This document shows, one piece after another, positions 3,873 through 31,841 of a stretch of 44,644 bases of DNA (position 1 is the first letter of the stretch; each line of letters starts with the position of its first letter). Under the pieces are notes generated by a model. It made no database searches, was not told the DNA's origin, and worked only from the letters and a program-made list of their open reading frames with translations. This DNA comes from a virus. The translations under genes and the position numbers were made by a program. The stretch lies in the IMG/VR virus record IMGVR_UViG_3300045988_101216. The stretch is one strand, 5' to 3'.

Positions 3873-5042
3873 TTATGATTTTGCGGTTACATCGTCATTT
3901 CCCGATTTCAGTGCCTTATAGGTATTGTCACATTCAACAACCGTGATATACTGTCCGGTAGTGGCTGTAATATCAGACTTGCCGTCCCAAGGTGTCCAAG
4001 TCTTTACACTCTGTCCGAACTTTACTTCCGGCGCGGAACCTGCTGCCACTTTGTATTTGTACATGTGTCCGGTTTCAAGCCCCGGAGAAACAGTCACTTT
4101 GGTATCTCCCGTCTTTGTGCCTGCGGCGGATGTTACCGTTAAAGTACCGAGTGTTGTATCGTCCGTCATATCAACAACTGAAATAGCGTCAATATATTCT
4201 GCAAAAAGAGTTAATCCCATGATTGCAAATGCTTCTGATACAGCATGTTTGTAGTCGCCTTGAGTGTGGAATCCAATCAGATTCGTTTCTCCGCTGACCG
4301 TATATACCAGTCCAGCCCGTACAAAATCACTCTCGTTCGGGTCAACATAGTAAAGAACGATATTTTCTACCGGGGTAGCAATAATGCGTCCTCTCTGGAT
4401 TTCTCCCTCAGAAAGCAGGAAGATCGTGTTGAATCCCATGAAGTCCTTGATATACTGGAATCCAAACTGATTCTGAATCGTAATATCTGCCGCACCGATG
4501 TACTCATACACGTCAAGGATATTTACAAAGCCTACAACTCCCGTTGCTGTCCTGTGCATCATTTTGAACTTGTTCTCCACAAGACCTTTGGCCATAGCAA
4601 GCGCCATCTGGAAAGTAGTCTCTGTCGCTGTCAGTGTGCCGGTATTCAGATAATCATAGAATCTGCCAGTAACCATAGTGGTAAGCTGGAACAGAAATTC
4701 ATCATCGGTCATCTGCACTGCGTTCTCATAGCCGTGGTCTTTAATGCTTTCAATGGAAACAGCCTTTGCATACTTCTCAATGGTCATTTCCGCATATTCT
4801 TTTTCTTTTACAGTAAATTTGCTGTATGGGATTTCCTCGCCCTCGCCTACGTTTCCATCTGCAAGACTTCCCTCTGCATATTTACTTTTCAGGATTGCTC
4901 CCGGCTGTTTCTTAATCGGGCGCATAATACCGAGAATCTCTCTTAAATGCTCCCAGTTCCGCTCAAATCTAGTAACAAAATCAATTTCCCTTGCCGTTAC
5001 CTGAATGTCAGCGGTTTTGATAAGATTATTTTTTGCTGCCAT
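3873..5042 (-). CDS. Major capsid protein with C-terminal Ig-like extension
   Basis: ORF track, 389 aa, directly after the scaffold gene. The last ~90 aa (TLGTLTVTSAAGTKTGDTKVTVSPG...YKYKV) look like a Big/Ig-like decoration domain. Confidence 0.8.
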   Translation of the reverse strand: MAAKNNLIKTADIQVTAREIDFVTRFERNWEHLREILGIMRPIKKQPGAILKSKYAEGSLADGNVGEGEEIPYSKFTVKEKEYAEMTIEKYAKAVSIESIKDHGYENAVQMTDDEFLFQLTTMVTGRFYDYLNTGTLTATETTFQMALAMAKGLVENKFKMMHRTATGVVGFVNILDVYEYIGAADITIQNQFGFQYIKDFMGFNTIFLLSEGEIQRGRIIATPVENIVLYYVDPNESDFVRAGLVYTVSGETNLIGFHTQGDYKHAVSEAFAIMGLTLFAEYIDAISVVDMTDDTTLGTLTVTSAAGTKTGDTKVTVSPGLETGHMYKYKVAAGSAPEVKFGQSVKTWTPWDGKSDITATTGQYITVVECDNTYKALKSGNDDVTAKS

Positions 5043-5680: not shown

Positions 5681-5759
5681 AATAATCCTCCTAAACGTCT
5701 ACTTATTAACCGCCCGTCAGCGGTAATGGATTCAGACAGATAAACCTCTGTCGGGGTAA

Positions 5760-5832
5760 TCGGGACACCCGGAATCGAACCGGGGACTTGCTGTGTATAA
5801 GACAGGTGCTCTACCAACTGCGCTATGTCCCA
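5760..5832 (-). tRNA. tRNA, anticodon UAU (Ile, AUA-decoding) by manual folding
   Basis: Sequence: TGGGACATAGCGCAGTTGGTAGAGCACCTGTCTTATACACAGCAAGTCCCCGGTTCGATTCCGGGTGTCCCGA. U8, A14, G18G19, A21 and the GGTTCGATTCC T-arm are present. The anticodon loop is CTTATAC with U33 and A37. No CCA is encoded. Confidence 0.85.
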
Positions 5833-6019
5833 AAATGCCGCCAAACAGCGGCAGAACATTTATAACCCGTTCAAAGGTGCTATTTGACCGGTAGACCCGT
5901 ACATTGATTATCAGGCTCAATGCGATAAGCCTAATGCACACGCCGGAAATTGCACCCGCTTTTCAACCTCCGGCATAAAGCCGTTTCTATTAAGGACGTG
6001 TGCTAAGAAAGGAGGTGTC

Positions 6020-6093: not shown

Positions 6094-6267
6094 CTATACA
6101 ATATGTGTTATTACTTTTATTTTAAAGTCTGGCTCTATGTCCAGAATAGATTGTATTTTACACTTGGGGCAAAACACTGGTAGGTTTTCTGCCACAGTTT
6201 CTTTGCGTATTTTTATACGTGTTTTATTATTGCATATAGGACAATAAATCCATTTTTCTCTTACCAT
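6094..6267 (-). CDS. Cysteine-rich KTR-type small protein (57 aa)
   Basis: Manual translation MVREKWIYCPICNNKTRIKIRKETVAENLPVFCPKCKIQSILDIEPDFKIKVITHIV. AAGGAGG RBS. CPxC...KTR...CPKC pattern. Below the ORF-track cutoff. Confidence 0.75.
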   Translation of the reverse strand: MVREKWIYCPICNNKTRIKIRKETVAENLPVFCPKCKIQSILDIEPDFKIKVITHIV

Positions 6268-6366
6268 GTTCTACCTCCTTTACAATCCTAAGTATATTAT
6301 ATCAGACATGCGAAAAAACTTTGTACCCATATTTTAAGGGCGATAGCAAAACCACCGCCCTCATAT

Positions 6367-6897
6367 TTACATCATGTCTCTTAATTTGTCGATATACCGC
6401 TTCATGGTGTCTCTTTCTTCACGACAGTCGGCGTCGCGGCTCATGCCTTCCAACTCTTCCGTCAGAGCGTCCATATGCTCTTCCAGTGCTGCGAGCATTT
6501 TCTGTTTGCAATCCATATCTTTTCCGGCTCTGTAGGAATGCTTTTTATCCATGTACTCGTTATATGTGTCCATGTCTCTACCGCGACTATAATGCCCTCT
6601 TACATAGTGTTTGCCGCGAGTGCCACGATAGGAATTGTCATTGTCATAGTTTGGCATCATTCCATCGCGGGAATACCTCCCCATACTGTCACGCTTTCTG
6701 GCTTCGGAATATCCGCCGTCCATTTCTGCCAGAACAGCGTCATAATATTCTTCTTTGCATTTCCAGTATTCCACATTTTCCATGTCTTTCAACATATCAA
6801 TCAGCTTGTATGCAGTTTCAAGGTTTGAAGTATTCAGACCTTTTTCTGCAATTCTATCAAGCTCTTCTTTGATGTTTTGCATTAATTTATAACTCAT
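6367..6897 (-). CDS. Hypothetical protein with Tyr/Arg/Asp/Met-rich core
   Basis: ORF track, 176 aa. Helical ends flank YSEARKRDSMGRYSRDG...SYRGTRGKHYVRGHYSRGRDMD. Confidence 0.6.
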   Translation of the reverse strand: MSYKLMQNIKEELDRIAEKGLNTSNLETAYKLIDMLKDMENVEYWKCKEEYYDAVLAEMDGGYSEARKRDSMGRYSRDGMMPNYDNDNSYRGTRGKHYVRGHYSRGRDMDTYNEYMDKKHSYRAGKDMDCKQKMLAALEEHMDALTEELEGMSRDADCREERDTMKRYIDKLRDMM

Positions 6898-6909
6898 AGC
6901 CTGCCCTCC

Positions 6910-7305
6910 TTAACCTATTCTGCTCACAACGAGATTTGCGTCACTTACGATAGCCGCCACGGTTCCAATATTTCTTACGCTCAAGGTGGAGCAACATGGG
7001 CGATTTACCCTAACTTCTACTGTGGAAGAACCGTTTCCATACCCCGCTGCCGTAACTGTCGTAATAATTTTGCTTCCGGGAATGCTGTCTCCGTCCTGCC
7101 TGATTTCAAAGGCTAATGTTCCGGCTGCTACCGCCGAAAAGTTGCCATTAAAACCTACTCTGTAAAGCCCCGGTAGCAATGTCACTCTACCGCTCCCCGG
7201 CTCATGACGTATATTCTGACAATTTCCACCGATCCTATTTGTGGTAAAGGCAACATTGTCTCCGACATTTACTGTCTGTGTTCCTAAGCTTACCATATCT
7301 GCCAT
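6910..7305 (-). CDS. BclA C-terminal / C1q-TNF-like jelly-roll domain protein (131 aa)
   Basis: ORF track. The pattern VAF...G..RVTLLPGLYRVGFNGNF...LAFEIRQDGDSIPGS...STVEV...LSVRN...ANLVVSRIG resembles the exosporium BclA C-terminal domain. No collagen repeats. Confidence 0.5.
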   Translation of the reverse strand: MADMVSLGTQTVNVGDNVAFTTNRIGGNCQNIRHEPGSGRVTLLPGLYRVGFNGNFSAVAAGTLAFEIRQDGDSIPGSKIITTVTAAGYGNGSSTVEVRVNRPCCSTLSVRNIGTVAAIVSDANLVVSRIG

Positions 7306-7428
7306 AATTTCATTCTCCCTCCATAATATTGCAAAAGGGTAGACTATCAGCCCACCCTCTCACATTAGTAATAACGGCTTTTGCCGAACAACCCGGACGT
7401 GCCGGGAAGAAACCTCAATATGAAGTTT

Positions 7429-8103
7429 TTAGCAAGCACAGTTTCCGCACCCATTGCCATATCCATAAGTCGCCTGATAAGGACTGCAAGTAATATAAGC
7501 CGGCACCGGAGTCGGACGTAATGTATTGATAATATTGTTTGTCTGACTTACGTTCGCAAGCTGGAGCTGTGCGGATTGAAGCTCAGTCTGCAAGGACTGA
7601 ATCTTATCGGTTGTGATCAGATCAACAATCCTCTGTGTTCCTGCATTCTGGGCATCAATCACATCCCTAAAACCATTGCAAAGCTGGCTCTGGAGTGCAT
7701 TTGCATTCTGATTCATGGTGTTCTGTAGTGCATTGGTCTGCATCGCAAGATTGTAATTGATTTCGCCCTGTCCCTGTTTTAAATCACAGCAACAATTTGC
7801 CATCTGGGAACCAAGCGTATTAAATCCATTGCAAAGCTGTGTAGAAATGTTCTGGATTCCGCTTTCGATTCCCTGCGTGGACAATGCCGCGTCAATATCT
7901 GCGCGTGTTGCATATCCCTGAAATGCCGGAGAATTTGCTCCACCATTTCCGCCCCAGCCGTTGCCGTAACCGCCCCAGCCAAAAGCGCCAAAAATGAGGA
8001 ACAATATAATCCACCATGCTCCGTCTCCACCCCAGCCGTCATTATTTCTTCCATTGTTGCCAGTTAATACAGCAACATCAGAAGCACTTAATCCATCTGT
8101 CAT
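7429..8103 (-). CDS. Gly/Trp-rich membrane protein with Cys-rich C-terminus
   Basis: ORF track, 224 aa. N-terminus GWGGDGAWWIILFLIFGAFGWGGYGNGWGGNGG. Duplicated QLCNGF motif, an NCCCD triplet, and a tail YGYGNGCGNCAC. Confidence 0.6.
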   Translation of the reverse strand: MTDGLSASDVAVLTGNNGRNNDGWGGDGAWWIILFLIFGAFGWGGYGNGWGGNGGANSPAFQGYATRADIDAALSTQGIESGIQNISTQLCNGFNTLGSQMANCCCDLKQGQGEINYNLAMQTNALQNTMNQNANALQSQLCNGFRDVIDAQNAGTQRIVDLITTDKIQSLQTELQSAQLQLANVSQTNNIINTLRPTPVPAYITCSPYQATYGYGNGCGNCAC

Positions 8104-8156
8104 AATTGTTTGCTCCTTTGAATTTATTTACAAAATCATGGCCATTGATTTATGTA

Positions 8157-8366
8157 CTATTTGAACAGCCCCTGCATCTGTTGAGCCAGCTGCTGAACCT
8201 TATTAAGCTGCGCCTGAGATATTTTCCCAGACTGTAAAAGTTTCTGGACTTCTTCCTGTGGATTTACTCCCTGCATCTGTTTTTTGAACTGTTGGAACTG
8301 CTGAAGCATATTCCCCGATCCATTATTGGATTTTCCACCAAGAAGATTAAAAAGAGGATTTCCCAT
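8157..8366 (-). CDS. Gln-rich small protein (69 aa)
   Basis: ORF track 8157..8468. Start moved to the ATG at 8366 (MGNPLFNLLGGK), 5 nt after the upstream stop. Confidence 0.55.
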   Translation of the reverse strand: MGNPLFNLLGGKSNNGSGNMLQQFQQFKKQMQGVNPQEEVQKLLQSGKISQAQLNKVQQLAQQMQGLFK

Positions 8367-8370
8367 AATA

Positions 8371-8826
8371 TCACTCACCCTTTCCAGTAGGTTTTGTTGC
8401 TGTTTCAAGAAGCCCGTATAGTTCTTCGTATTTGCCCCGTAAATCGTTGTATTCCTGACGGGTAACATATTTATCGTCTAAGCTAATTTCTTGCTGTTTC
8501 TGCGGCTCTGGCGCATTTACGCCAACCTCTTTATACTCAAACGTTCGGAGCGTTGGCATACCGGCACTATCCGTTGTCTTGATATAAAACCTCTCATTTT
8601 CGCTATCCATAAGCAACACACTTGTATTTGGAGCGACCAGATAACTCTTTGCCCCTGCTTCGCCCTGTACCCACAGAATCCCTTGATTGGTCTGCGGCAC
8701 TTGCGGCTGCTGTGGTGGCTGATACTGAGCCTGCATTTGTGCCAGCCTATCCATTTGTGGCTGTAATGGGTTATAATACGGTGTCGGTGCATAACCGCCA
8801 TATCCATTATTCATATAGCCTGCCAT
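8371..8826 (-). CDS. Pro/Gln/Tyr-rich N-terminus protein with a conserved beta-rich core
   Basis: ORF track, 151 aa. N-terminus MAGYMNNGYGGYAPTPYYNPLQPQ...QPPQQPQVPQ, then ILWVQGEAGAKSYLVAPNTSVLLMDSENERFYIKTTD. GGAGGAAAC RBS. Confidence 0.6.
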   Translation of the reverse strand: MAGYMNNGYGGYAPTPYYNPLQPQMDRLAQMQAQYQPPQQPQVPQTNQGILWVQGEAGAKSYLVAPNTSVLLMDSENERFYIKTTDSAGMPTLRTFEYKEVGVNAPEPQKQQEISLDDKYVTRQEYNDLRGKYEELYGLLETATKPTGKGE

Positions 8827-8839: not shown

Positions 8840-8870
8840 TTCTATGACTATTTCTATAACTTTCTATGAC
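8840..8870. repeat. Three tandem copies of TTCTAT(G/A)AC just upstream of the cassette RBS
   Basis: Read directly: copies at 8840-8848, 8852-8860 and 8862-8870. On the minus strand this reads GTCATAGAA a GTTATAGAA ata GTCATAGAA cGGAGG. Confidence 0.7.
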
Positions 8871-8951
8871 TTAATTTTAGACATAAAAAAAGAACTCTGA
8901 CAGTTCGTCAAAGTCCTTGAAAAGTATCAAAAAAATATCGCTATTATTTTT

Positions 8952-9137
8952 TTATGGATTTATAATAAATTTATTTTGCCCAATAGTTACTTTATTGTCT
9001 TTTTGCAAAAATACAGGTTCCGTTCCGTTATAAACGTCTGCACATACATTATTTTTCAAAATACTCGGCTTTTCGCCGCTTAGATCAATACAGGCAATTA
9101 CTTCTTTCGTATCCTCTTCATATACTACCACAATCAT
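8952..9137 (-). CDS. Hypothetical protein (61 aa)
   Basis: ORF track. Tightly packed behind 9139..9339. Confidence 0.45.
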   Translation of the reverse strand: MIVVVYEEDTKEVIACIDLSGEKPSILKNNVCADVYNGTEPVFLQKDNKVTIGQNKFIINP

Positions 9138-9138: not shown

Positions 9139-9339
9139 TCAGCACACCCTTATAATCTTATTATTCACTTTCCTGCTCAACCGCTTAATGGTTGATACGC
9201 TTACATTCATCAGCTCCGCACACTGTTCAAGCGGTACACCTTTTGCACGATATTCAAAAAGCGTGCTTTCGTCCTTTGTGAAATTACAGTATGTACGAAA
9301 ATAATTCAGTTCCGGTACGGTAAAGTCATATACTTTCAA
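9139..9339 (-). CDS. Small sigma-70 region-4-like HTH protein
   Basis: ORF track, 66 aa. The segment FTKDESTLFEYRAKGVPLEQCAELMNVSVSTIKRLSRKVNNKI resembles a region 4 / LuxR-type HTH. Confidence 0.5.
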   Translation of the reverse strand: MKVYDFTVPELNYFRTYCNFTKDESTLFEYRAKGVPLEQCAELMNVSVSTIKRLSRKVNNKIIRVC

Positions 9340-9350: not shown

Positions 9351-9686
9351 TTATTTTTCGGTCAAGGCGTTTATAAGTTCGTCTCTTGTTTTTTTTAGAC
9401 CCTCTATGTTGTTTCCGGTTATCTTGTTTTCGATTAAGCAGAACATACTACGCATAAGCAGATTCATGTCATTTCGATTATTATTAATGCTTTCATAATC
9501 ATTATTAAGTTTCTGCTTTATATCTTTTATATCTGATTCTATTACTGTGATACGATTTTCTAAATCGTTTGTCGGTTTTTTGTACTTTTTATAAGCTCCG
9601 GTTAAAATAGCCGCAGCTCCTCCTATAATAGAAATTCCTCCACATATAGAAAGTATTGTTTGTACTGTTGTTATTAAGTCTTCCAT
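9351..9686 (-). CDS. N-terminally anchored coiled-coil membrane protein
   Basis: ORF track 9351..9779. Start moved to the ATG at 9686 (MEDLITTVQTILSICGGISIIGGAAAILTG), 1 nt after the upstream TAA. Confidence 0.5.
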   Translation of the reverse strand: MEDLITTVQTILSICGGISIIGGAAAILTGAYKKYKKPTNDLENRITVIESDIKDIKQKLNNDYESINNNRNDMNLLMRSMFCLIENKITGNNIEGLKKTRDELINALTEK

Positions 9687-9687
9687 A

Positions 9688-10065
9688 TTATCTCTCCCAG
9701 TAATATATTGGTATCTCGTTCCCACTATCCCACGAATCCCAGTAATACCCGTCCTGCACACATACCACATGACCGTCAATCGCCAGTATGTAAGTTCCTT
9801 TTGGGTTGTCCTCGCAGAAATCTCGGACAGTGTATATATCCTGATTGTGGTCGTCTACCAGATGTCGCCGGAATCCCTTACGGCGGAGATACGCGCTCCA
9901 TACATGATTAGCCGAGGGCATATCTGACAAAGAAAATCCCATGAATGACAGTCCTGCATAGGTCGTTTCCCAGTCTTGATTTAATGCTTTGCTGATTGCT
10001 CGGACTGTGCAGTCTCCGACATTACTGCCCCGTGGGTTCGGATTGTATAGTTTCCATCTGTTCAT
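9688..10065 (-). CDS. Putative papain-fold Cys-His-Asp peptidase/amidase
   Basis: ORF track 9688..10071 (TTG). Start moved to the ATG at 10065. Motifs GDCTVRAISKAL, IDGHVVCV and DSWDSG are spaced like a Cys/His/Asp triad. Confidence 0.35.
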   Translation of the reverse strand: MNRWKLYNPNPRGSNVGDCTVRAISKALNQDWETTYAGLSFMGFSLSDMPSANHVWSAYLRRKGFRRHLVDDHNQDIYTVRDFCEDNPKGTYILAIDGHVVCVQDGYYWDSWDSGNEIPIYYWER

Positions 10066-10175
10066 AGGCAATCAAACTTCTTCCTTCCGCATTTTTACAT
10101 TCTTTCAAAGCAATATATCCTCTATCCGTTCTTAATCTTGACTTCGTTTTATATATGTGTTTGCAAAATAACATC

Positions 10176-10654
10176 TTAATTAGACTTTTTTGCATTTTCA
10201 TATCTCCTCGCCGCTCCTGCCGCTTTCATAGCCTGTTCTCTGTCCCATTTCGCCGTTTTTAATCTTTCCGCATAAGGCTTTAAATTATTATCTTCGCAAT
10301 ACTGCTTGTATGCGGTGTTCTGCTTTTTCAGCAGATAAGACTTTCTGTCAAACTCCTGCTGCAACTCAAATTTTAGTTTTTCATCACGGCAATTATCAAT
10401 AGCAGTCTGCATATTCTGTATTTTCCGCTTCGTATCACGCACACGCCACTCCAATGCCCTTTGTCTCTGCTGTTTCTCATAGGTTTTTCTATTTTCTTCC
10501 GTGTCGTACTGTTCAAACGGGTTTGTTGATATTCCCGGATAGTACGGTCCGAAGCTATGCCGACAGTTGGCTAAGCTCCGCAGAGTCCATCAACATATCC
10601 ATATCTAGTAGATTCTACAAAATCTGGATATTTTCTTTCTTCTGCGTTTTCCAT
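10176..10654 (-). pseudogene. C-terminal half of the SPP1 gp7 / Mu F-type minor head protein, with an internal frameshift
   Basis: The ATG at 10654 gives MENAEERKYPDFVESTRYGYVDGLCGA, then TAG at 10571-10573. The -1 frame continues LANCRHSFGPYYPGISTNPFEQY...EWRVRDTKRK into ORF-track 10176..10454. Confidence 0.7.
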
Positions 10655-10655
10655 A

Positions 10656-11327
10656 TCAATCACCTGCCTTTTTATTCCAATACTTTTCTTCTGCTGTTAT
10701 TCTGGCTTCTACAGCTTCTTTTTCTGTATCGAAATATCCTAAATGTATTGTTTTATAATTCACGCCTATCGTGGCTCTGTATTTCACATTTCCACTTTTA
10801 AAAACAGTTTTTATAACTCCAGAATGGACGGTCTTACAATCAGTTCGTTTTCCACGATTCCAACAATTTTCTTGATGAGTTATCCATCTGCAATTTTCAG
10901 GACTATACCCTTTGTCATTGTCTATTCTATCAAGAGTCAAATCATCTGAATATCCATTTTCCATCGACCAATTATAAAAATTGGAAAATCCGTTTTCGCC
11001 TTTCCATTCTTCACATACATCAATTCCACGTCCTCCGTAGTTCTCATAATGCGAAGCAGATGGGTTTTTACACCTGTGAAGAATACCTCGCCATTCTTTA
11101 TGTATTCTGCTTTTATATTTACCATGAATTAAAGACGCTTTGGAAGTTCTTTCTTTCTGCAAACACCCACATGACTGTGTATGCCCTGATTTCAATTTTG
11201 AAGTAGACACATATAAAATATTACCACAATCACATAAACACTCCCATTTATGAATCCAGTTTTCATGCGTTCCGTCTCCAATGACTCTTAGCCTTCCAAA
11301 TTTCTTCCCTATAAGATTTTCTTTCAT
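10656..11327 (-). CDS. HNH homing endonuclease with C-terminal AP2-type DNA-binding domain
   Basis: ORF track. Contains GKKFGRLRVIG...CLCDCGN...SCGC, LTLDRIDNDKGYSPENCRWITHQEN (HNH) and YRATIGVNYKTIHLGYFDTEKEAVEAR (AP2-like). Its stop overlaps the next ATG (TGATATG). Confidence 0.8.
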   Translation of the reverse strand: MKENLIGKKFGRLRVIGDGTHENWIHKWECLCDCGNILYVSTSKLKSGHTQSCGCLQKERTSKASLIHGKYKSRIHKEWRGILHRCKNPSASHYENYGGRGIDVCEEWKGENGFSNFYNWSMENGYSDDLTLDRIDNDKGYSPENCRWITHQENCWNRGKRTDCKTVHSGVIKTVFKSGNVKYRATIGVNYKTIHLGYFDTEKEAVEARITAEEKYWNKKAGD

Positions 11328-11353
11328 TTATCACGCACTCCTTTTATATACAT

Positions 11354-11417
11354 TCAACTACTTTCAGTTTATCATAATTACATTGTAATTGCAAGTAGTT
11401 GAAATATATGATAGAAT
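11354..11417. promoter_or_regulatory. Divergent control region: nested palindromes plus TTGCAA-17-TGaTAGAAT promoter
   Basis: TTCAACTACTT (11354-11364) pairs with AAGTAGTTGAA (11393-11403). Inner palindrome AATTACAtTGTAATT at 11376-11390. Plus-strand -35 at 11389-11394 and -10 at 11412-11417. Confidence 0.6.
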
Positions 11418-11439
11418 ACAATAAAAGGAGGTTGACAGC

Positions 11440-11604
11440 ATGAAAGAAAATCGTGGCTTGAAAAACCGCATAGCCATATCAAACGCAATAGATAAATCCC
11501 TTTACGAAAAGCTTAAACAGTATTCCGATGATACGGGAATCCCTATAAGCAAACTTCTTGACAAATCAATAGCTATGTTTCTTGAAAGTATAGAGAGAAA
11601 TTGA
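11440..11604 (+). CDS. Ribbon-helix-helix (CopG/Arc-like) protein, 54 aa
   Basis: Manual translation MKENRGLKNRIAISNAIDKSLYEKLKQYSDDTGIPISKLLDKSIAMFLESIERN. AAAAGGAGG RBS. Below the ORF-track cutoff. Confidence 0.7.
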   Translation: MKENRGLKNRIAISNAIDKSLYEKLKQYSDDTGIPISKLLDKSIAMFLESIERN

Positions 11605-11610
11605 CTCTCT

Positions 11611-12372
11611 TTACACTTTTATTTTGTTCCAATCGACCGAAAATACCTTTCCTTGCCACGGTTCATGTGTCGGTCTCGCTCCCATGTGTGCAGATGTAAG
11701 AACATATTTCACACCCATCTCTTTCGCTCTTGCAAGCGATACCTCAGCGGCACACTGACTGATTCCTGTTCTCAAAATCATCATCGTGGCAGATTCTATA
11801 CTCATTTTATAGCCAGAAGGATAATTTACTTTCAGCCCTGTTTCTGATACCTCTTTTAGTACGTCTCTGACAGCTTCTGTGTACGATACAGCCCCAGAAA
11901 CAACCATATTATAAGCGCTGTCCATCTGATTGATAAAAAGCCTCTGAGCCTCGTTTGCGGTAGTCTTAGTGAAGTTTCGCCACTCCCCTGCGGTAGCCTC
12001 GTAATTCCTCTGCATTATCCGCATAAGTGCCGGAGATTGCAAGAGCGGAACGGGAGACAGCCCAGCGGCCTGATAGATTTTATCGTCCCACTGTAAAGCT
12101 GTTACTCCTGCATCTTCCATAGCTTCTTTGATTTCCTGCACCTGCTTTTTGGTCTTATCGGAAAGCTCCTGCTGTATATCTTCCAGAAGATAGCCAGCCT
12201 CTTGCAATACCTCAATCTGCCATTTGTCCGTAGCGGTCAGAAGATAATCTTCGCCCCGTCCGATTCTCGCCATCATGCGGGCTATAATCTTGTCCAGTAT
12301 ATTTTTATGAAGCTGCGAGGCGATATTTTCAGCCCCTTCGGTTATGCGGTATAGATATTCTGGTGTAAGCAT
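11611..12372 (-). CDS. N-terminal half of the SPP1 gp7 / Mu F-type minor head protein
   Basis: ORF track, 253 aa. Ends ...SAHMGARPTHEPWQGKVFSVDWNKIKV, so it stops inside the conserved domain, before the NCRH motif. Confidence 0.75.
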   Translation of the reverse strand: MLTPEYLYRITEGAENIASQLHKNILDKIIARMMARIGRGEDYLLTATDKWQIEVLQEAGYLLEDIQQELSDKTKKQVQEIKEAMEDAGVTALQWDDKIYQAAGLSPVPLLQSPALMRIMQRNYEATAGEWRNFTKTTANEAQRLFINQMDSAYNMVVSGAVSYTEAVRDVLKEVSETGLKVNYPSGYKMSIESATMMILRTGISQCAAEVSLARAKEMGVKYVLTSAHMGARPTHEPWQGKVFSVDWNKIKV

Positions 12373-14677: not shown

Positions 14678-16309
14678 TTATGCTTGTGTTCCACGTCTCA
14701 TAAATACTGGCTCAAACGCGTATCTGAGAGCGTCTATAATATGGTTATCTGCGTCAGGATAGCCGGAAATAATGTTTCCGTCCTTATCCCGTTCGTATTC
14801 ATATTTTGTCAGTTCGTTATATGCGTTCGGCGTTCTCCTTCGGTCAATAACTATCTTCCTTTTCTGCAACCACTTCATTCCGTAATCCACAGAACCAGGC
14901 CCTTTGATTGCCGCCCGGGAGAATACACCTAAATCTTTGTAATCATTCACGGACTTTTTCTCGGCAGAATCACAGATAATGCAATAATCATTATAGCCTT
15001 TCTCCTTTATCCAGTCCGCTGTTACCGTGTTAGGCTCTTTGTTTGCGTAATGTTCATCTATCAGATAAATAGTTTCTCTCGCATGGTCGTAATATGCTCT
15101 GATAAAAGCATACGGGTCAGGAAACCATCCCCAGTCAACACCCTGGTATATCTTATCCATGTGGGATATTTCTTCGTCCGTGATTTCCTTAAGTTCTAAA
15201 TAATCAAATACGTTGCCGCCGTTACCATTGGCAACACCCTCATATTCGTTTTCATAGGCAGCAGGGTTCACCTTTTTCAGATGTTCAGCTTCGTTTATAA
15301 ATTCTTCGCCCAGCCATTCCTCCGGCACGTCTTTGTATGTGCTTCTTACAACCATTGCATCCGGGTTACTATATTCTGCTTCCTCGACATATTCATTTGC
15401 ATAATTGTTTTTGCTTTTGGGTGGGTTAAAGGATTTAAACCTATAAGCCTTATCTCCGCCGCGAATAGCGGACTGTTGAATACTTCTGATTTCTTCCAGC
15501 CCTGCAAATTGGTCAAATTCTTCAAACCATACTATCCCTATATAGCCAAATTCCGGTTTGATAGATTTAATTTTTAAAGGGTCATCTGCACCGCGGAAAT
15601 ATATCTTCTGCCCTGTGGGTTTATAAATAATCTCAAACGGAGATTTCTTAAACTGAAATCCTTGTTCCAGCTCAAGTGTTGCTATCGCCCATTTCATTTG
15701 TGCATACACGGAATCTTTAATGGTGTTTCCTACTTTACGAAGAATAAGAGCGTGCATGGACGGATTGTTTTTTATCAGTTCCAAGATAATACAGGATATT
15801 CCAGACGATTTTGTTGAACCACGGCCGCCAGGAAGCACATACTCCGAATGGTTTCCTTTGCGAATATCCCTAACCATTGGATGAAAAACATCTGCGATAA
15901 CATCAAGGTCAATGTGGTATGTGCCGCTCTGTCTCGCTTCTTCCAGTGCTTTCTTTTCAGCTTCTTTTTCCTCTTTGATAGTCAGAGCCTTTTCCAAATC
16001 ATTCATGGCTTTTAGCTGGTCTGAAAAATCCGGGGCAAAGCCAAAATCATCTTTTAATTCTCCCTTTGCCAGCTTAGAGCGGCGCTCCTGGATTTCCGTC
16101 AGGCTCATAATATCCCTTTTGGCTTTTTTCTCTATTTCTTGCTGGCGTTCGGCTATATAGTTCAAAATGCTATCATTTGCTATCAATCGTGCGGCATTTG
16201 CATTACTTCCTTTTTTGCGATACCCTGCTTTTCTGTATGCCTCGGCTGCATTTCCACCATTCTTCAGATATTCATCCGCAAAGGCTTTCTGCTTTGGTGT
16301 GAGATTCAT
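14678..16309 (-). CDS. Terminase: small-subunit-like HTH N-domain fused to a PBSX-type large subunit
   Basis: ORF track, 543 aa. The N-terminus MNLTPKQKAFADEYLKNGGNAAEAYRKAGY... is TerS (Terminase_2)-like. The Walker A motif GGRGSTKS appears at about residue 160, followed by a TerL body. Confidence 0.8.
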   Translation of the reverse strand: MNLTPKQKAFADEYLKNGGNAAEAYRKAGYRKKGSNANAARLIANDSILNYIAERQQEIEKKAKRDIMSLTEIQERRSKLAKGELKDDFGFAPDFSDQLKAMNDLEKALTIKEEKEAEKKALEEARQSGTYHIDLDVIADVFHPMVRDIRKGNHSEYVLPGGRGSTKSSGISCIILELIKNNPSMHALILRKVGNTIKDSVYAQMKWAIATLELEQGFQFKKSPFEIIYKPTGQKIYFRGADDPLKIKSIKPEFGYIGIVWFEEFDQFAGLEEIRSIQQSAIRGGDKAYRFKSFNPPKSKNNYANEYVEEAEYSNPDAMVVRSTYKDVPEEWLGEEFINEAEHLKKVNPAAYENEYEGVANGNGGNVFDYLELKEITDEEISHMDKIYQGVDWGWFPDPYAFIRAYYDHARETIYLIDEHYANKEPNTVTADWIKEKGYNDYCIICDSAEKKSVNDYKDLGVFSRAAIKGPGSVDYGMKWLQKRKIVIDRRRTPNAYNELTKYEYERDKDGNIISGYPDADNHIIDALRYAFEPVFMRRGTQA

Positions 16310-28359: not shown

Positions 28360-28739
28360 TGATGTGCCTATTGGCAAAAGAAAGGCTGGTGGATATGTTA
28401 ACCAAACTTTTGAATTTGCCTGCTCCCTTAATCTAAGGTTGCCATAGTGGAACCAAAGCACTTAAAACTGGTCAAAGGTAATTACTGATACAGCGTTACG
28501 CAACTCAGAGAAGGAGTATAAAACGCATGGCTGGCCGCCTAACGGCTTCACTGTATCGTGTATTCCTTTTGTCTTGCCAGCGATTAGGCATATCGCAGAA
28601 CCATAACTGCAAAAGTGGCAAGGTACTTGATAGAAGCACTTGGCTCTATCGAGTGTGGTGAAAACCTGCAAAGTACATAGGGTAAACAAATTTGGCATAG
28701 AGCCGTTCGAGATAGAGCCTCGGACGGTTTCTTTGATTT
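28360..28739 (+). ncRNA. Candidate structured noncoding RNA in the immunity intergenic region
   Basis: No credible ORF. Helices: 28573-28579/28616-28622, 28580-28584/28592-28596 and 28629-28634/28645-28650. Terminator hairpin 28703-28711/28719-28727 plus a T-run. Possible promoter TTGTAT-17-TATAAT near 28328-28356. Confidence 0.35.
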
Positions 28740-28766: not shown

Positions 28767-28923
28767 TTGCGTTTACTTCGGTTTAGTGATATACTTTGTT
28801 TACCGAACGAAATAATTCACTTTTGCAACATTTCACTTTTAAGTATCATCATACATTGCTTAACCGAACTATGCTTATACTATAACGCATTATTTCGGTT
28901 TTGTCAACATGTTTATTTCGTTC
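28767..28923 (+). promoter_or_regulatory. Repressor promoter/operator region with repeated (A/T)ACCGAA half-sites
   Basis: TTGCGT (28767-28772), 17 nt spacer, TGaTATACT (-10 at 28790-28795). TTCGGTT at 28777-28783 and 28895-28901. ACCGAA at 28802-28807 and 28863-28868. ATTTCG at 28892-28897 and 28915-28920. Confidence 0.5.
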
Positions 28924-28953
28924 TTGCAAATTAATTTGAATGGAGATGAATTC

Positions 28954-29574
28954 ATGTATGAAATTTTCAAACGATTGTGTGAGGAACGTGGAATTACTAC
29001 TTATCGTTTTTGCAAAGATACCGGAATAAACGCTTCTACAATCAGCACATGGAAAAAACGGAATACTACTTGCAACCTAAAACTCGCTACAACAATCGCA
29101 GAATATTTCGGAGTATCTGTAGACTATGTAATGACAGGTCAAGAATCTGATATTCCAGCATTATCCAATGTATTTCCTATCGAACTAAAAAGATTTCCCA
29201 TGCTCGGAGAAATAGCTTGCGGAAAGCCGAAATATACAAATGAAGATAGGGAGAGTTACATTATGGCCGGAACAAATATTAATGCTGATTTTTGTTTACG
29301 TGCCTCTGGTGACAGTATGATTAATGCTAGAATTTTAGACGGAGACATTGTTTTTATCAGAAAACAGGACATGGTAGAAAATGGCGAAATTGCCGCAGTT
29401 GTTGTAAATGGTGATGAAGCTACATTGAAAAGAGTATTTTATTATCAGGAACAAGCTCTTTTAATTCTAAGAGCAGAAAATCCAATATATGAAGAAATGC
29501 GTTTTGCAGGGGAAGAACTAAACCAAGTGCACATTTTAGGAAAAGCTGTTGCATTTCAAAGCGACGTGAGATAA
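28954..29574 (+). CDS. CI/LexA-like repressor (XRE HTH + S24 peptidase)
   Basis: ORF track 28909..29574. Start moved to the ATG at 28954 (MYEIFKRLCEERGIT). C-terminal half has RASGDSMINARILDGDIVFIRKQ...ATLKRV. Confidence 0.85.
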   Translation: MYEIFKRLCEERGITTYRFCKDTGINASTISTWKKRNTTCNLKLATTIAEYFGVSVDYVMTGQESDIPALSNVFPIELKRFPMLGEIACGKPKYTNEDRESYIMAGTNINADFCLRASGDSMINARILDGDIVFIRKQDMVENGEIAAVVVNGDEATLKRVFYYQEQALLILRAENPIYEEMRFAGEELNQVHILGKAVAFQSDVR

Positions 29575-30331: not shown

Positions 30332-30460
30332 GCCGCCCTGTATCTTGGTCGGATAGGACGGCTTACTAAGTTCGTTTTAATTCGCCGGAACGGGTAGCTT
30401 GCACCTACCTGTCGGCTGTCTTGTTAAGTATATTATATGTCAAAGCAAACTATTTGTCAA
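30322..30460 (-). ncRNA. Candidate antitoxin sRNA with consensus promoter
   Basis: Minus strand TTGACA (30460-30455), 17 nt spacer, TATAAT (30437-30432). The predicted ~100 nt transcript ends at the shared hairpin, overlapping the toxin 3' end. Confidence 0.5.
30330..30364. terminator. Bidirectional hairpin shared by the toxin mRNA and the convergent sRNA
   Basis: AAGCCGCCCT (30330-30339) pairs with AGGACGGCTT (30355-30364), one mismatch. The T-run on the minus strand is the complement of aaaaataagt at 30321-30330. Confidence 0.55.
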
Positions 30461-30461
30461 A

Positions 30462-30561
30462 CGTAAAAACCGCCCCTGCGCCAACAGGAGCGGCCACATA
30501 TCCGAAGATATGCTATTACTTTGGTCGGTAATATTGTATCATCTTCGGACAGCCCCCGCAA
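30462..30561 (-). ncRNA. Second candidate short minus-strand transcript upstream of int
   Basis: Minus strand TTGCGG (30561-30556), 17 nt spacer, TGaTACAAT (-10 at 30538-30533). Terminator hairpin 30470-30478/30485-30493 followed by TTTTT. Inverted repeat CCGAAGAT/ATCTTCGG at 30502-30509/30541-30548. Confidence 0.3.
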
Positions 30562-30617
30562 GCGGAACACTCGTTCGCGCTGGCTGTTATTTTTATACCC
30601 AAAAGGAGGATGATTTT

Positions 30618-31841
30618 ATGGCAAAAAGGAAAAAACACCCAAATCTCCCTAATGGTTTTGGCAGTATCCGCAAACTATCTGGAAACCGTAATGTCGCTTA
30701 CGCAGTACACCCACCTGTGAAAGACTTCGGCGAAGATGGGAAACCAGTAACCCCCAAAGCTCTATGCTATGTATCTGATTGGTATGTAGGTTTCTCGGTT
30801 CTGATGGCTTACAAGGCTGGTACTTATAAACCAGGGCTAGAAAAAGAGCTGGAAATCATGCGTGCCATGGATGATGGGGACTTACATGGGTTTACTAAAC
30901 GAATCCTTGCAGATTACACTATAGCAGTACGTCCGGTCCAAGAAAATAAGGGTGACATGACTTTTACTCAATTATACGAAAAATACTATACATGGAAATA
31001 TGATGGGAAGAAACAATATTCTGATCAATCCAAAAGGTCCACCAGGGCTGCGTACAAGAACTGTGAAGCCATTCATGGGGAGAAGGTAAAGAATATCACC
31101 TATGAGCAATTACAACGCATTGTAGACGGTTCTGCGCTTAAGCACGCCAGCCTGGAACTGATAGTATCCCTTCTTAAGCAGATGTTTAAATATGCTTTGG
31201 CTCAAAACTTTGTAGAAAAAAATCCTACAGAGCTGCTGCGCATCAATATTCCAGACGATGATGAGCACGGGGTTCCGTTTAGTATCCGAGATATAGAACG
31301 ACTGTGGAATCATGAAGACAATGATATTGCCCAAGTACTCCTAATTATGTGTTATACAGGGTATCGTATCGGAGAATTGAAAGTTATAAAAACTGATCTA
31401 AAAAAATGTTTCTTTTCGGGTGGCTTGAAAACAAGGACAAGTAAAGATCGAATCGTCCCTATCCACTCGGCTATTTACCCGATTGTCAAAAAACGAATAA
31501 GGAAATATGGTGAAATAATGCCTTTATCTGATGTCAAATTCCGAGAGTCTATGAGGACCTACATCAAATCTCTCGGAATCGGAGAACATACACCGCATGA
31601 CTGTCGGCACACTTTCTCAGCCCTTTGCGAAAAATACGAGGTAAAAGAAAATGACCGAAAAAGAATGTTGGGACACAAATTTATGGATGTCACAAATGAA
31701 GTATACGGACATAGGGCACTAGAAGATCTCCGAAAAGAAATCGAGAAAATTCCGTGTCTAAAATGCGTCGAAAATGGAACCTCAAAATCAATTCAAAAAG
31801 AACAAATATTCGAGACAATACAAGACAAGAAAATGGCGTAA
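30618..31841 (+). CDS. int: Tyrosine integrase
   Basis: ORF track 30399..31841. Start moved to the ATG at 30618 (MAKRKKHPNLPNGFG) behind AAAAGGAGGA. C-terminal HDCRHTF...LGH...VYGH catalytic pattern. Confidence 0.9.
   Translation: MAKRKKHPNLPNGFGSIRKLSGNRNVAYAVHPPVKDFGEDGKPVTPKALCYVSDWYVGFSVLMAYKAGTYKPGLEKELEIMRAMDDGDLHGFTKRILADYTIAVRPVQENKGDMTFTQLYEKYYTWKYDGKKQYSDQSKRSTRAAYKNCEAIHGEKVKNITYEQLQRIVDGSALKHASLELIVSLLKQMFKYALAQNFVEKNPTELLRINIPDDDEHGVPFSIRDIERLWNHEDNDIAQVLLIMCYTGYRIGELKVIKTDLKKCFFSGGLKTRTSKDRIVPIHSAIYPIVKKRIRKYGEIMPLSDVKFRESMRTYIKSLGIGEHTPHDCRHTFSALCEKYEVKENDRKRMLGHKFMDVTNEVYGHRALEDLRKEIEKIPCLKCVENGTSKSIQKEQIFETIQDKKMA
31755..31777. repeat. Direct repeat A (TGTCTAAAATGCGTCgAAAATgG), inside the int 3' end
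   Basis: Matches 31953-31975 at 21 of 23 positions, by direct reading. Confidence 0.8.

Follow-up and report, generated by a model that had tools for sequence, protein, structure and literature searches.

The window analysed here, a stretch of 44,644 nucleotides of viral DNA (IMG/VR record IMGVR_UViG_3300045988_101216), stems from a temperate siphovirus and carries five consecutive genes on its minus strand, termed g1 (8371-8826, 151 aa), g2 (8157-8366, 69 aa), g3 (7429-8103, 224 aa), g4 (6910-7305, 131 aa) and g5 (6367-6897, 176 aa), separated by gaps of 4, 53, 123 and 12 nt, respectively. For g2 the start at MGNPLF was chosen, as a longer open reading frame reaching position 8468 overlaps g1 and the match to its PHROG family starts only at residue 35 of that frame. 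Each of the five proteins matches its own PHROG of unknown function (E 5e-17 to 1e-68), and all five exact sequences are on record in genomes of Blautia hydrogenotrophica, those of g4 and g5 on at least 1000 and 890 contigs, respectively. An earlier note, made from the sequence alone, had described these genes as a cassette of low-complexity, coat-like proteins unlike any standard phage module, and this observation is confirmed. In agreement with it, comparison with 18 other proteins of the window showed that g1 is enriched in Pro (2.9x), Gln (2.8x) and Tyr (1.9x), g2 in Gln (6.2x), g3 in Cys (4.1x), Asn (2.2x), Gly (1.8x) and Trp (1.7x) and g5 in Met (4.0x), Arg (2.5x), Tyr (1.9x) and Asp (1.7x).

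For g1, g2, g3 and g5 no Pfam, NCBIfam or PDB relative was found. Protein g1 (phrog_21718, E 2e-57) features a disordered Tyr/Gly/Pro/Gln-rich N-terminus followed by a short helix, a conserved five-strand beta core and a C-terminal helix (YVTRxEF...L). Its family comprises 2129 clusters at 90% identity and 2900 clusters at 50% identity with E<=1e-3, all of which are 100-200 aa in length and none of which is a fusion. Profile searches for g1 gave no PDB hit, and its AlphaFold2 model was not reliable (pLDDT 46). Protein g2 (phrog_22984, E 3e-26) is a Gln/Met-rich helical protein with the motif GxNPQEEVQxLLxSGKI, and in other phages its place is taken by a Met/Gln/Asn-Pro-rich protein, g2b; alignment of g2 with CPD1_037 by hhalign gave a probability of 85. 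Protein g5 (phrog_28802, E 1e-68) consists of helical N- and C-terminal parts around an Arg/Tyr/Asp/Gly/Met-rich low-complexity centre (RDSMGRYSRDG...YRGTRGKHYVRGHYSRGRD) and belongs to the same family as the 210-aa proteins of larger phages (hhalign probability 100).

The signature protein of the cassette is g3 (phrog_16490, E 8e-57), for which more than 7400 clusters at 90% identity were found; homologues occur in Clostridium perfringens, crAss-like and Bacteroides phages. It starts with a conserved N-terminal peptide, followed by a Gly/Trp-flanked hydrophobic anchor (residues 29-43) with the segment AWWIILFLIFGAFGW, an amphipathic helical stalk with QLCNGF motifs and an invariant CCC (residues 104-106), the motif LRPxPxPAY and a Cys/Gly-rich tail of the Pro/Asn/Tyr-(CGC)n type, the tails of about 110 variants having been compared. 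The hydrophobic periodicity of 3.6-3.65 was reached by only 4 of 300 shuffled sequences. On the other hand, the hydrophobic core is short (14-15 residues; maximum Kyte-Doolittle score over 19 residues 1.43). Within the gap between g3 and g4, a hairpin (GGGTGGGCTGATAGTCTACCC) with a T run and a -10-like TATTAT is located at 7323-7365 on the minus strand (fold z-score -3.7 for the 123-nt gap) and may represent an internal attenuator or a second promoter.

The assignment of g4 (phrog_20016, E 5.5e-17) as a BclA-C/C1q-like jelly roll, as proposed in the earlier note, is confirmed. Homologues with 54-57% identity match Pfam BclA_C over its full length, albeit just below the cut-off (E 6e-9 to 5e-7, 30-36 bits against a cut-off of 38), the AlphaFold2 model has a pLDDT of 86 and a pTM of 0.81, and UniRef names the exact sequence 'BclA C-terminal domain-containing protein'. 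In a Foldseek search of the PDB (9h38, 2r6q, 1wck and 8d02, TM 0.65-0.81) the top matches were F-BclA, BclA and BxpB/ExsFA, followed by TNF-family proteins, while a search of BFVD returned stand-alone phage proteins of 130-145 aa with TM up to 0.90. The protein is a stand-alone domain with conserved Cys29 and Cys104-Cys105 and is replaced in other phages by an unrelated Cys-rich beta protein, g4b.

Upstream of g1 the minus strand carries a compact region (8840-8939) with features of a dedicated control region. The array of three direct repeats claimed in the earlier note is real: GTCATAGAA, GTTATAGAA and GTCATAGAA, the two types followed by A, are located at 8862-8870, 8852-8860 and 8840-8848, in the 5' leader between the -10 element and the ribosome-binding site of g1, and relatives carry 0 to 4 copies at the same place. 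Further upstream, a sigma-A-type promoter-like site (8874-8903; CTGTCA, 18 nt, TAAAAT) overlaps an intrinsic terminator hairpin (8890-8918) that was detected by a terminator scan and features a 13-pair stem followed by a T run. The 3' arm of the stem carries the -35-like CTGTCA, and the hairpin is inferred to insulate the cassette from upstream transcription. In relatives the stem sequence changes while pairing is kept, e.g., AAGGACTTTGAC, AGAGCCAGAAAC and GGAGCCTTAA, and the -10 element (TAAAAT, GATAAT, CATAAT or TATAAT) is kept at the same distance from the hairpin. Two further direct repeats, GATATTTTT and GATACTTTT, lie 11 nt apart at 8920-8939 and constitute a candidate activator site. 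The pair (A/G)ATACTTT, about 11 nt apart, is kept at the same place in many relatives, and the only other exact minus-strand copy in the window (18345) has a different context. In contrast, the downstream terminator proposed in the earlier note is only a GC-rich hairpin after g5 (6338-6360, GGGCG...CGCCC) without a T run that was not called by the terminator scan, and it is a weak candidate for the end of the transcription unit; the next gene (Cys_rich_KTR, 6094-6267) has its own TGnTATAAT-like promoter.

The unit is larger than the five genes originally noted. Directly upstream of g1 in most loci lies a gene for a 66-aa helix-turn-helix protein of the sigma-70 region 4/GerE type (sig66, 9139-9339, minus strand). 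The protein encoded here reaches Sigma70_r4_2 with E 4.9e-4 only (20.1 bits against a cut-off of 25.7) and phrog_1190 'RNA polymerase sigma factor' with E 9e-6, while diverse members of the family reach Sigma70_r4 with E 2.4e-10 and GerE with E 8.6e-6. A different sig66 variant, found in a group of larger phages termed L105 type, goes with different upstream repeats, ATGGCGT x3 instead of GATACTTT x2. Sig66 is a putative dedicated activator of the cassette promoter, its binding being inferred. The 61-aa open reading frame u61 between sig66 and the terminator (8952-9137, minus strand) gave no family hit and has no homologue in 165 loci, so that it is probably not part of the module. The minus-strand frame at 9351-9779 encodes a small XhlA-like or holin-like membrane protein with a transmembrane segment followed by a coiled coil, probably starting at the internal Met near 9686. 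Only weak hits were obtained for it (Pfam XhlA E 0.0065 and DUF7365 E 0.0018, both below cut-off; holin phrog_1296 E 1.7e-4), and the family is present in 123 of 247 loci, mostly from close relatives.

A further component of the module is p127 (9688-10071, minus strand), a 127-aa protein (phrog_3754, unknown function, E 3e-36) with invariant Cys21, His101 and Asp112/115 and an NPNP motif, encoded adjacent to the cassette in 183 of 247 loci. It resembles C39-type papain-like peptidases that cut double-glycine leaders in its small size, a DC..A motif about 80 residues before GH(V)V and a following Asp, and several cassette proteins have Gly-Gly-rich N-termini. However, no Pfam, NCBIfam or PDB match was found at any threshold tried and there is no transporter partner, such that the assignment as a putative processing peptidase is an inference from the residue pattern.

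To find out whether these genes form a unit, gene order was compared across loci. The order g1, g2, g3, g4, g5 recurs in more than 200 fetched loci and the same gene order is found in more than 120 of 165 viral loci. Among 80 species-level genome loci, where g3 is only 27-71% identical to the window protein, all five positions are filled in 65, with g1 present in 74, g2 or g2b in 71 and g5 in 64, while a DUF7841 protein replaces g5 in 12. Strict pairings between parts were observed: p127 lies upstream of g1 in 29 of 30 loci with g2 but never in the 41 loci with g2b, where it is located downstream of g5 (19) or absent (22), and DUF7841 occurs only together with g4b (12/12) and never with g4 (0/42). 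The possibility that the genes are independent hitch-hikers without a joint function, held together only by descent, appears very unlikely. Phage genomes do carry many small open reading frames of unknown function, and close relatives dominate the first set of loci, but order and co-occurrence are kept at 27-40% protein identity across species-level loci from many families, parts are swapped in defined pairs and the block moves as a unit between genome positions.

In the window, the module lies in the head operon, on the same strand, between the minor capsid gene and the scaffold gene. Elsewhere, the commonest upstream neighbour family is endolysin/amidase (up to 7 of 61 per family) and the commonest downstream neighbour is integrase (14 of 65). 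In Butyrivibrio phage Ceridwen the complete cassette (p127, g1, g2, g3, g4, g5) follows the endolysin, and in crAss cr125_1 the g3 gene follows holin and a LysB-like gene. At least three different major-head-protein families flank the cassette. In being bounded by a terminator and a promoter, inserted between conserved late genes or next to the attachment site, and exchanged horizontally, the module resembles morons, the autonomous transcription units in late operons of temperate phages such as lambdoid and HK97-type phages, but it comprises five to seven genes with their own regulator rather than one gene, is conserved at deep divergence and is also present in a phage seen only in lytic growth.

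The earlier note had interpreted the cassette either as a phage-carried module acting on the host spore or cell surface or as an unusual capsid decoration set, and its interpretation is only partly supported: the cassette does have its own regulatory region and matches no described phage module, diverse members of its families having no Pfam hit, but neither a role on the host spore nor a capsid-decoration set is. With regard to the spore, a lysogenic-conversion module remodelling the cell or spore surface, i.e., a nap like that of an exosporium with a stalk plus a BclA-type head made in lysogens or in sporulating mother cells, could be envisaged. The fold of g4 matches exosporium nap and endospore-appendage tip proteins of the Bacillus cereus group (BclA, L-BclA/F-BclA and the anchor BxpB/ExsFA; Pfam BclA_C PF18573, C1q_TNF clan), exosporium proteins are likewise Cys-rich and lack signal peptides, and BclA attachment needs N-terminal proteolysis (PMC11362473), which parallels the putative peptidase p127. 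Furthermore, a GerE-like regulator is present, the compositions are rich in Tyr, Gly, Gln and Cys, integrase as the commonest downstream neighbour marks the usual site of conversion genes, the unit is bounded like a moron, and in Lachnospira intestinalis the cassette is the outermost prophage block, next to host sporulation-sigma-like genes. Nevertheless, this reading is considered unlikely. Ceridwen, a phage of Butyrivibrio fibrisolvens, was isolated as plaques and seen only in the lytic cycle (PMC7372960), which argues against a spore-specific role. The genus Butyrivibrio is not known to sporulate. Homologues of g3 are present in crAss-like phages and in a phage isolated on Bacteroides uniformis. 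Homologues in non-sporulating hosts, one half of the condition set beforehand as refuting the proposal, were thus found. In addition, Blautia hydrogenotrophica is described as non-sporulating, the regulator gene here sits in the late operon with no separate promoter seen, and g4 is a bare domain with neither a collagen-like stalk nor an exosporium leader, the stalk candidate g3 being a separate helical protein with a hydrophobic anchor. CotY/ExsY partners are lacking, and seven g4b representatives scanned, including the CPD1 copy, have no Pfam hit of any kind, DUF3992 included.

A lattice-specific capsid decoration would not be expected to accompany several major-head-protein families or to change its position between the head module, the region after the endolysin and the vicinity of the integrase. 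As a broader alternative, a virion-associated accessory set remains possible, though doubtful. Here, g3 and g4 would form a coiled-coil fibre or needle with a TNF-like knob, or g3 together with the disordered g1 and g5 would be internal or ejected proteins that open the host membrane at infection, matured by p127. In this phage, in Dulem virus 35 and in the larger L105-type phages the cassette lies inside the head or connector module, fold matches of g4 include knobs of phage spikes and fibres (phi812 central spike 9eul, cyanophage A4 9k09 and fibre 8ke9) as well as many collagen-like phage fibres, and g3 homologues are annotated as 'viral fiber' or 'spike protein' in Bacteroides and crAss records, although these are fold- or HHpred-style labels rather than experimental results. 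The Gly-rich hydrophobic N-terminus of g3 followed by helical repeats resembles a fusion or penetration element (weak hit to a coronavirus spike helical region). P22/Sf6-type tail needles are coiled coils and the Sf6 needle ends in a TNF-like knob. In contrast to such structures, shaft and knob are separate genes here, the shaft carries a membrane-type anchor and a metallothionein-like Cys tail, and the position is not fixed in the tail module. Moreover, the cassette accompanies unrelated capsid lineages, it has its own terminator, promoter and regulator, which virion genes in a late operon do not need, one natural variant (locus L021) lacks g1-g3, and the window already encodes a full tail set (tape measure, tail protein and a 1281-aa protein) and an Ig-like domain on its capsid protein.

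It is also conceivable, but unlikely, that the proteins are released at lysis and self-assemble or cross-link by thiol, metal or Tyr chemistry and sticky low-complexity regions into a matrix that coats, clumps or protects progeny virions or membrane debris during passage between anaerobic guts, an occlusion-body-like strategy. The absence of signal peptides, implying release only by lysis, the dedicated promoter suggesting a late burst, the Tyr-rich (g1) and Arg/Tyr-rich (g5) low-complexity regions, the Cys-rich g3 tail and g4/g4b would agree with this, as would a cassette that works with any virion type and the fact that all sources seen are animal guts (human, lemur, rodent, rabbit, horse, chicken and rumen). 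However, the reasoning is purely compositional, without precedent in phages and without any indication of high expression or assembly, and the g3 membrane anchor remains unexplained.

The juxtaposition with lysis genes, including XhlA-like genes beside the cassette in 123 loci, invites comparison with phage lysis accessories that combine a transmembrane segment with a coiled coil, i.e., the i-spanin Rz and XhlA of PBSX-type lysis cassettes. Like these, g3 has an N-terminal hydrophobic segment, a long helical region and conserved Cys. However, g3 gave no Pfam hit at all and hence none to a spanin or XhlA family, no lipoprotein partner was noticed among the translated open reading frames next to the cassette, albeit without a dedicated lipobox search, most hosts have a single membrane and need no spanin, and spanins do not come with a TNF-like protein, low-complexity proteins or their own regulator. 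The phage has a canonical endolysin and relatives carry a Phage_holin_5_2 gene, so no lysis function is obviously missing.

Taken together, the analysis establishes that the five genes are the core of one mobile phage module, consisting of the gene for the sigma-region-4/GerE-type putative regulator, the terminator, promoter and repeat region, p127 and five positions filled by g1, g2 (or g2b), g3, g4 (or g4b) and g5 (or a DUF7841 protein). It occurs in a very large number of gut phages, has no characterised relative and is probably not specific to spores. How it works is inferred at every step, including expression, localisation and interactions, and the following model is put forward only tentatively. 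The regulator would switch on the dedicated promoter, shielded by the upstream terminator from read-through, such that the set would be made as a burst late in the lytic cycle. Protein g3 would insert into the cytoplasmic membrane through its Trp-flanked hydrophobic segment and form a long, probably trimeric, helical stalk, locked by its CCC motif and (CGC)n tail through metal-thiolate clusters or disulfides. Protein g4, whose fold is that of proteins that are trimers in all solved relatives, or g4b in its place, would cap or decorate this stalk, while g1, g2 and g5 would act as assembly or matrix partners and p127 would trim one of the components. Several points speak against this model. None of g1, g2, g4 or g5 has a signal peptide, and if the g3 stalk points outwards, g4 could only meet it after lysis. 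The type of g3 tail does not co-vary with g4 versus g4b, and identities of g3 and g4 vary independently among close relatives, both of which argue against a specific g3-g4 contact. The short hydrophobic core of g3, the absence of an obviously missing lysis function and the natural variant (L021) that lacks g1-g3 likewise count against the model. A site next to the integrase is also the classic place for lysogenic-conversion genes, and a terminator plus an own regulator inside a late operon could equally mean expression uncoupled from late transcription. On the other hand, the late and lysis-linked context, the full copy in a phage seen only in lytic growth and the lack of a tie to one virion type are in line with it. 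In this view, the module would provide a late-expressed assembly at the host membrane, a trimeric stalk with a trimeric cap built near lysis, that acts on the envelope of the infected cell around the time of lysis and release and would be neither part of the spore nor an obligatory part of the virion.

The region holds five minus-strand ORFs exactly where the earlier note had placed them, namely g1 (8371-8826, 151 aa), g2 (8157-8366, 69 aa), g3 (7429-8103, 224 aa), g4 (6910-7305, 131 aa) and g5 (6367-6897, 176 aa), so that the observation on which that note was built is confirmed. In the case of g2 a longer ORF up to 8468 overlaps g1, and only its last 69 residues match the family profile. The unusual compositions described in the note also hold when compared with 18 other proteins of the same window: g1 is enriched in Pro, Gln and Tyr, g2 in Gln (6.2x), g3 in Cys (4.1x), Asn, Gly and Trp, and g5 in Met (4.0x), Arg, Tyr and Asp. 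Each of the five proteins matches its own PHROG family, every one of which is labelled 'unknown function', while none has a Pfam or NCBIfam hit, and searches of the same three collections with the neighboring proteins gave nothing useful beyond unknown-function PHROGs. All five exact sequences are on record in Blautia hydrogenotrophica genomes, and the exact g4 and g5 sequences are present in strain DSM 10507 and on about 900 to more than 1000 assembled contigs. Megablast against phage records yielded only one short fragment.

The window is a temperate siphovirus that carries an integrase at 30399-31841, a CI-like repressor at 28909-29574 and an endolysin at 32067-33899. A FuFi-1 RNA (Rfam RF02986, 147 bits; 28573-28733, plus strand) lies about 175 nt upstream of the repressor gene. 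On the minus strand, the order is terminase, portal, minor capsid protein 2, p127 (a small protein with conserved Cys, His and Asp, 9688-10071), an XhlA-like membrane protein (9351-9779), a 66-aa sigma-region-4-like protein termed sig66 (9139-9339), a non-conserved 61-aa ORF, g1 to g5, a Cys_rich_KTR zinc ribbon, tRNA-Ile, scaffold and major capsid protein. The terminase (14678-16309) combines small-subunit (Terminase_2) and large-subunit (Terminase_3, Terminase_3C) domains in a single 543-aa protein. The gene for minor capsid protein 2 (10176-12372) appears to be split by a free-standing HNH/AP2 endonuclease: the N-terminal part is located at 11611-12372 (Pfam positions 1-244 of 366), the HNH gene at 10656-11327 and the C-terminal part, which aligns inside the intact 409-aa gene of Dulem virus 35, at 10176-10454. 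The same HNH family also sits inside the cassette in Butyrivibrio phage Ceridwen and Clostridium perfringens phage CPD1. Downstream of the cassette, the Cys_rich_KTR gene (6094-6267, minus strand, E 7e-20) has its own TGnTATAAT-like promoter and follows the cassette in 78 of the first 165 loci collected. The non-coding gap between this gene and tRNA-Ile contains a RAGATH-21 RNA (Rfam RF03097, 83 bits against a gathering score of 70.3; 5935-6004, minus strand), and the tRNA-Ile itself (5759-5833, minus strand), located between the cassette and the scaffold gene, has the anticodon TAT. The major capsid protein (3873-5042, minus strand) carries a C-terminal domain of the S-layer SbsC_C type (E 2e-16) that looks like a built-in surface decoration.

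To find out whether the five genes constitute a unit, we collected 247 related loci from viral and genome collections and from annotated phage records and classified their six-frame ORFs with iterated profile searches. The order p127, (XhlA-like), sig66, g1, g2, g3, g4, g5 is found in more than 120 viral loci. In addition, we examined 80 loci from species-representative genomes, which had been chosen only for a g3 relative (27-71% identity) in a genome scan with a g3 alignment of restricted diversity. Among these, g1 is present in 74, g2 or its analogue g2b in 71, g4 or its analogue g4b in 76, g5 in 64 with a DUF7841 protein in 13 more, p127 in 51 and sig66 in 49. All five positions are filled in 65 of the 80 loci, and several of the others are cut contigs. 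One natural variant, locus L021 (9283-10001), keeps p127, the XhlA-like gene, sig66, part of g4, and g5, but lacks g1-g3. Parts are exchanged in defined combinations: g2 goes with p127 upstream of g1 in 29 of 30 loci, whereas g2b never has p127 upstream (0 of 41), p127 lying after g5 or being absent in those loci, and DUF7841 occurs only with g4b (12 of 12) and never with the BclA-C-like g4 (0 of 42). This pattern is what a functional unit with interacting parts would show, and not what would be expected of independent hitch-hiking ORFs. In the g2b-type cassettes, a small HExxH protein (106-128 aa) recurs a few genes downstream of g5, as exemplified by loci L105 (8003-8389), L109 (8914-9234) and L197 (8459-8782), the last of which stems from a Lachnospira intestinalis isolate genome, and a PolyVal metallopeptidase gene is found near the g3 gene of the Bacteroides phage.

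Directly upstream of g1 lie two direct repeats of GATAyTTTT, 11 nt apart (8920-8939), a 13-pair hairpin with a T run (8890-8918), a -10-like TAAAAT located 18 nt after a CTGTCA that sits in the 3' arm of the hairpin (8874-8903), three leader repeats of GTCATAGAA(A) (8840-8870) and a GGAGG ribosome-binding site. In 91 distinct upstream sequences from relatives, the hairpin is kept through changes on both arms, the -10 element stays at the same distance and the upstream repeats are kept, while the leader repeats vary from 0 to 4 copies. Phages with a different sig66 variant (L105 type) have three ATGGCGT repeats instead. The possibility of a second copy of the GATACTTT-repeat promoter at the start of the late operon was rejected, as the only other exact copy of the repeat on this strand, which is located there, has a different context. 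We read this arrangement as a terminator that insulates the cassette and a dedicated promoter that would be driven by sig66, whose binding to the repeats is an inference. A similar arrangement of hairpin, T run and -10 sits between g3 and g4. The hairpin after g5 has no T run and is a weak terminator at best.

With regard to sig66 itself, the window protein scores 20.1 bits against a cut-off of 25.7 for the sigma-70 region 4 profile, while diverse family members reach E 2.4e-10 for Sigma70_r4 and E 8.6e-6 for GerE; at 66 aa it cannot be a complete sigma factor. An apparently divergently transcribed sig66 in L197 was discarded, because that hit is a host sporulation-type sigma factor. In this locus (L197 1-4200) the cassette is the outermost prophage block and abuts host genes for tryptophanyl-tRNA synthetase, a YlmC/YmxH-like protein and said sigma factor. 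The neighbor at 9351-9779 does not reach the cut-off of the XhlA profile (17.1 bits against 34.7), and its match to holin phrog_1296 (E 1.7e-4) is suggestive only. A chance-level ZorA hit for the coiled coil (E 0.004, 16 bits against a cut-off of 250) was the only hint of a known anti-phage defence system.

A Pfam scan of 94 diverse members of all cassette families hit only the sigma-r4/GerE and DUF7841 families. PDB sequence searches with single proteins and with profiles for g1, g3, g4, g5 and p127 found nothing significant, a tau hit for g4 being a 20-residue chance match. The window g4 gives no hit to the BclA_C domain (Pfam PF18573, C1q_TNF clan) at E<=1, and homologues 54-57% identical to it reach 30.1-36.4 bits over the full profile, just below the curated cut-off of 38 bits. 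The AlphaFold2 model, however, is confident (pLDDT 86) and all-beta, and it predicts a compact, stand-alone jelly roll of the C1q/TNF type, with F-BclA (9h38), BclA (2r6q/1wck/3tyj) and BxpB/ExsFA (8d02) as the best PDB matches, followed by TNF ligands. In the viral structure library the best matches are other stand-alone proteins of 130-145 aa from gut-metagenome phages. The N-terminal exosporium leader and the collagen-like GXX repeat stalk of BclA-type exosporium glycoproteins are absent: g4 starts directly with the beta domain, and no collagen repeats are visible in any cassette protein sequence. The knobs of some phage spikes and fibres also match the g4 model, and a virion-associated fibre or ejection set is a possible, though rather doubtful, alternative for the cassette. 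For g4b, the alternative protein at position 4 that does not occur in this window, the seven representatives scanned, including the CPD1 copy, have no Pfam hit of any kind at E<=0.01-0.1, and thus none to the DUF3992 profile of endospore-appendage (Ena) subunits; the N-terminal Cys motif (CxxxCxxC) is only a resemblance.

The most widespread component is g3 with more than 7400 clusters at 90% identity. It is found in phages of Clostridium perfringens, in crAss-like phages and in a phage isolated on Bacteroides uniformis, as well as in genome bins labelled with many gut taxa, though binning of phage contigs is unreliable. Its conserved features are a Gly/Trp-flanked hydrophobic segment, an amphipathic helical region (periodicity 3.6-3.65, reached by 4 of 300 shuffles), an invariant CCC, the motif LRPxPxPAY and a tail ending in (CGC)n, the resemblance of which to copper metallothionein is no more than a lead. 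When compared with i-spanins of two-component systems, which feature an N-terminal transmembrane segment followed by a coiled-coil periplasmic domain, g3 shows a hydrophobic segment with a Kyte-Doolittle score of 1.43 over 19 residues and the helical periodicity just mentioned, values that leave its topology undefined. Two-component spanins further require a host with an outer membrane and a partner o-spanin lipoprotein gene embedded in, overlapping or adjacent to the i-spanin gene. Such a partner gene was not found: inspection by eye of the translated ORFs in or beside g3 here and in Ceridwen, CPD1 and L105 revealed no lipobox ORF, and the confirmed hosts (Blautia, Butyrivibrio, C. perfringens) have a single membrane. 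The notion that g3 is the phage holin was rejected, since Ceridwen and CPD1 have their own holin candidates and relatives of this phage carry Phage_holin_5_2.

Among the remaining proteins, g1 forms 2129 clusters at 90% identity and 2900 clusters at 50% identity, the latter all 100-200 aa in length and never fused to another domain. Its beta core is strongly conserved, but the AlphaFold2 model was too poor for a fold search (pLDDT 46). g5 belongs to the same family as the 210-aa proteins of larger phages. In p127, Cys21, His101 and Asp112/Asp115 occur in papain order and are invariant in five sequences down to 41% identity, consistent with a putative C39-like peptidase, yet neither Pfam and NCBIfam nor the PDB gave a hit with a single sequence or a profile. 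The combination of a Cys/Gly tail with a C39-like peptidase prompted us to consider a RiPP or bacteriocin locus, but no modification enzyme or transporter is visible in the flanking annotation or ORFs. Likewise, the crAss neighbors gp029, gp030 and gp032 could not be established as homologues of g1, g4 and g5, as hhalign probabilities were below 8.

The location of the module differs between phages. In Dulem virus 35 it is in the head module, as here, in Ceridwen it follows the endolysin, and in CPD1 it lies between the lysis and replication genes. In crAss cr125_1 the g3 gene follows holin and a LysB-like gene; several ORFs of this locus (L084, 3242-7295) are interrupted by in-frame stop codons under translation table 11, which suggests stop-codon recoding in this crAss-like phage. 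Among the largest ORFs flanking 61-65 diverse loci, the commonest upstream families are endolysins or amidases and the commonest downstream family is integrase (14 of 65), while minor head proteins and three different major-head-protein families appear less often. The block is therefore mobile, inserted at the ends or in the middle of late operons, and not tied to one capsid lineage. It is almost absent from plasmids, a plasmid search having given a single hit, in a Vescimonas replicon.

The interpretation offered in the earlier note, a module acting on the host spore or cell surface or else an unusual capsid decoration set, is only partly supported. The spore hypothesis does not fit three facts: a complete cassette is present in Ceridwen, a phage isolated as plaques and seen only in lytic growth, whose host genus is not known to sporulate; g3 occurs in Bacteroides and crAss-like phages; and the regulator gene here lies in the late operon. 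A lysogenic-conversion surface module accordingly appears unlikely to us, though it is not excluded. A capsid-specific decoration does not fit the variable position or the unrelated capsid families. The best-supported reading, which is nevertheless tentative, is a late-expressed module that builds an assembly at the host membrane near lysis and would consist of a g3 stalk, a trimeric cap (g4 or g4b), low-complexity partners (g1, g2, g5) and a trimming peptidase (p127). While the existence of one mobile module with its own promoter region and an adjacent putative regulator gene is established by the sequence comparisons, each step of this model is inferred, including expression late in infection, membrane localization, activation by sig66, peptidase activity of p127 and the trimeric state of g4, which is deduced from solved relatives only. 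The model also has weak points beyond the lack of expression and localization data, as the partners have no signal peptides, the g3 tail type does not co-vary with the g4 type, the hydrophobic core of g3 is short, and no lysis function is obviously missing from the phage. A post-lysis cross-linking matrix is considered improbable, and a substantial minor share of the probability remains for something not considered here. A similarly unlikely possibility is that gut phages of strict anaerobes carry a portable 'very late' module with its own regulator that builds a material resembling a spore coat or exosporium, consisting of a membrane-anchored helical stalk with metallothionein-like Cys clusters, a BclA-type or Cys-rich cap and sticky Tyr/Arg-rich low-complexity proteins. 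After lysis this material would coat or clump progeny virions or membrane vesicles and protect or disperse them between hosts, which would make it a phage counterpart of occlusion bodies or spore coats.

The closest known items are the BclA, ExsFA and Ena-tip proteins of Bacillus spores (PMC11362473), which compare with the cassette in the predicted fold of g4 only, lysis accessories of the spanin or XhlA type, which do so in the architecture of g3 and gene neighborhood only, phage needles and fibres with a TNF-like knob (shape only) and morons (transcriptional layout only). Each test for membership fails on at least one defining feature. Literature searches for the PHROG ids, DUF7841, BclA in prophages, Ena in prophages and C. 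perfringens phage names found no description of the cassette. We therefore regard it as lying outside known kinds of system, although its function may still prove conventional.

The families concerned are very large and, even so, no component other than the BclA-C-like domain has a characterized relative. The present work defines the module, its alternative parts and its control region, and it identifies the Blautia hydrogenotrophica prophage, Butyrivibrio phage Ceridwen and Clostridium perfringens phages of the CPD1 type as tractable systems in which the question can be tested directly. A module of five to seven genes with its own putative regulator moves between unrelated phages of Clostridia, and its signature protein, g3, reaches crAss-like and Bacteroides phages. 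This points to a general step in the life of gut phages that current models of lysis, assembly or transmission do not cover. If the function turns out to be ordinary, e.g., that of a lysis accessory, it would still give names to several large protein families that are currently of 'unknown function'.
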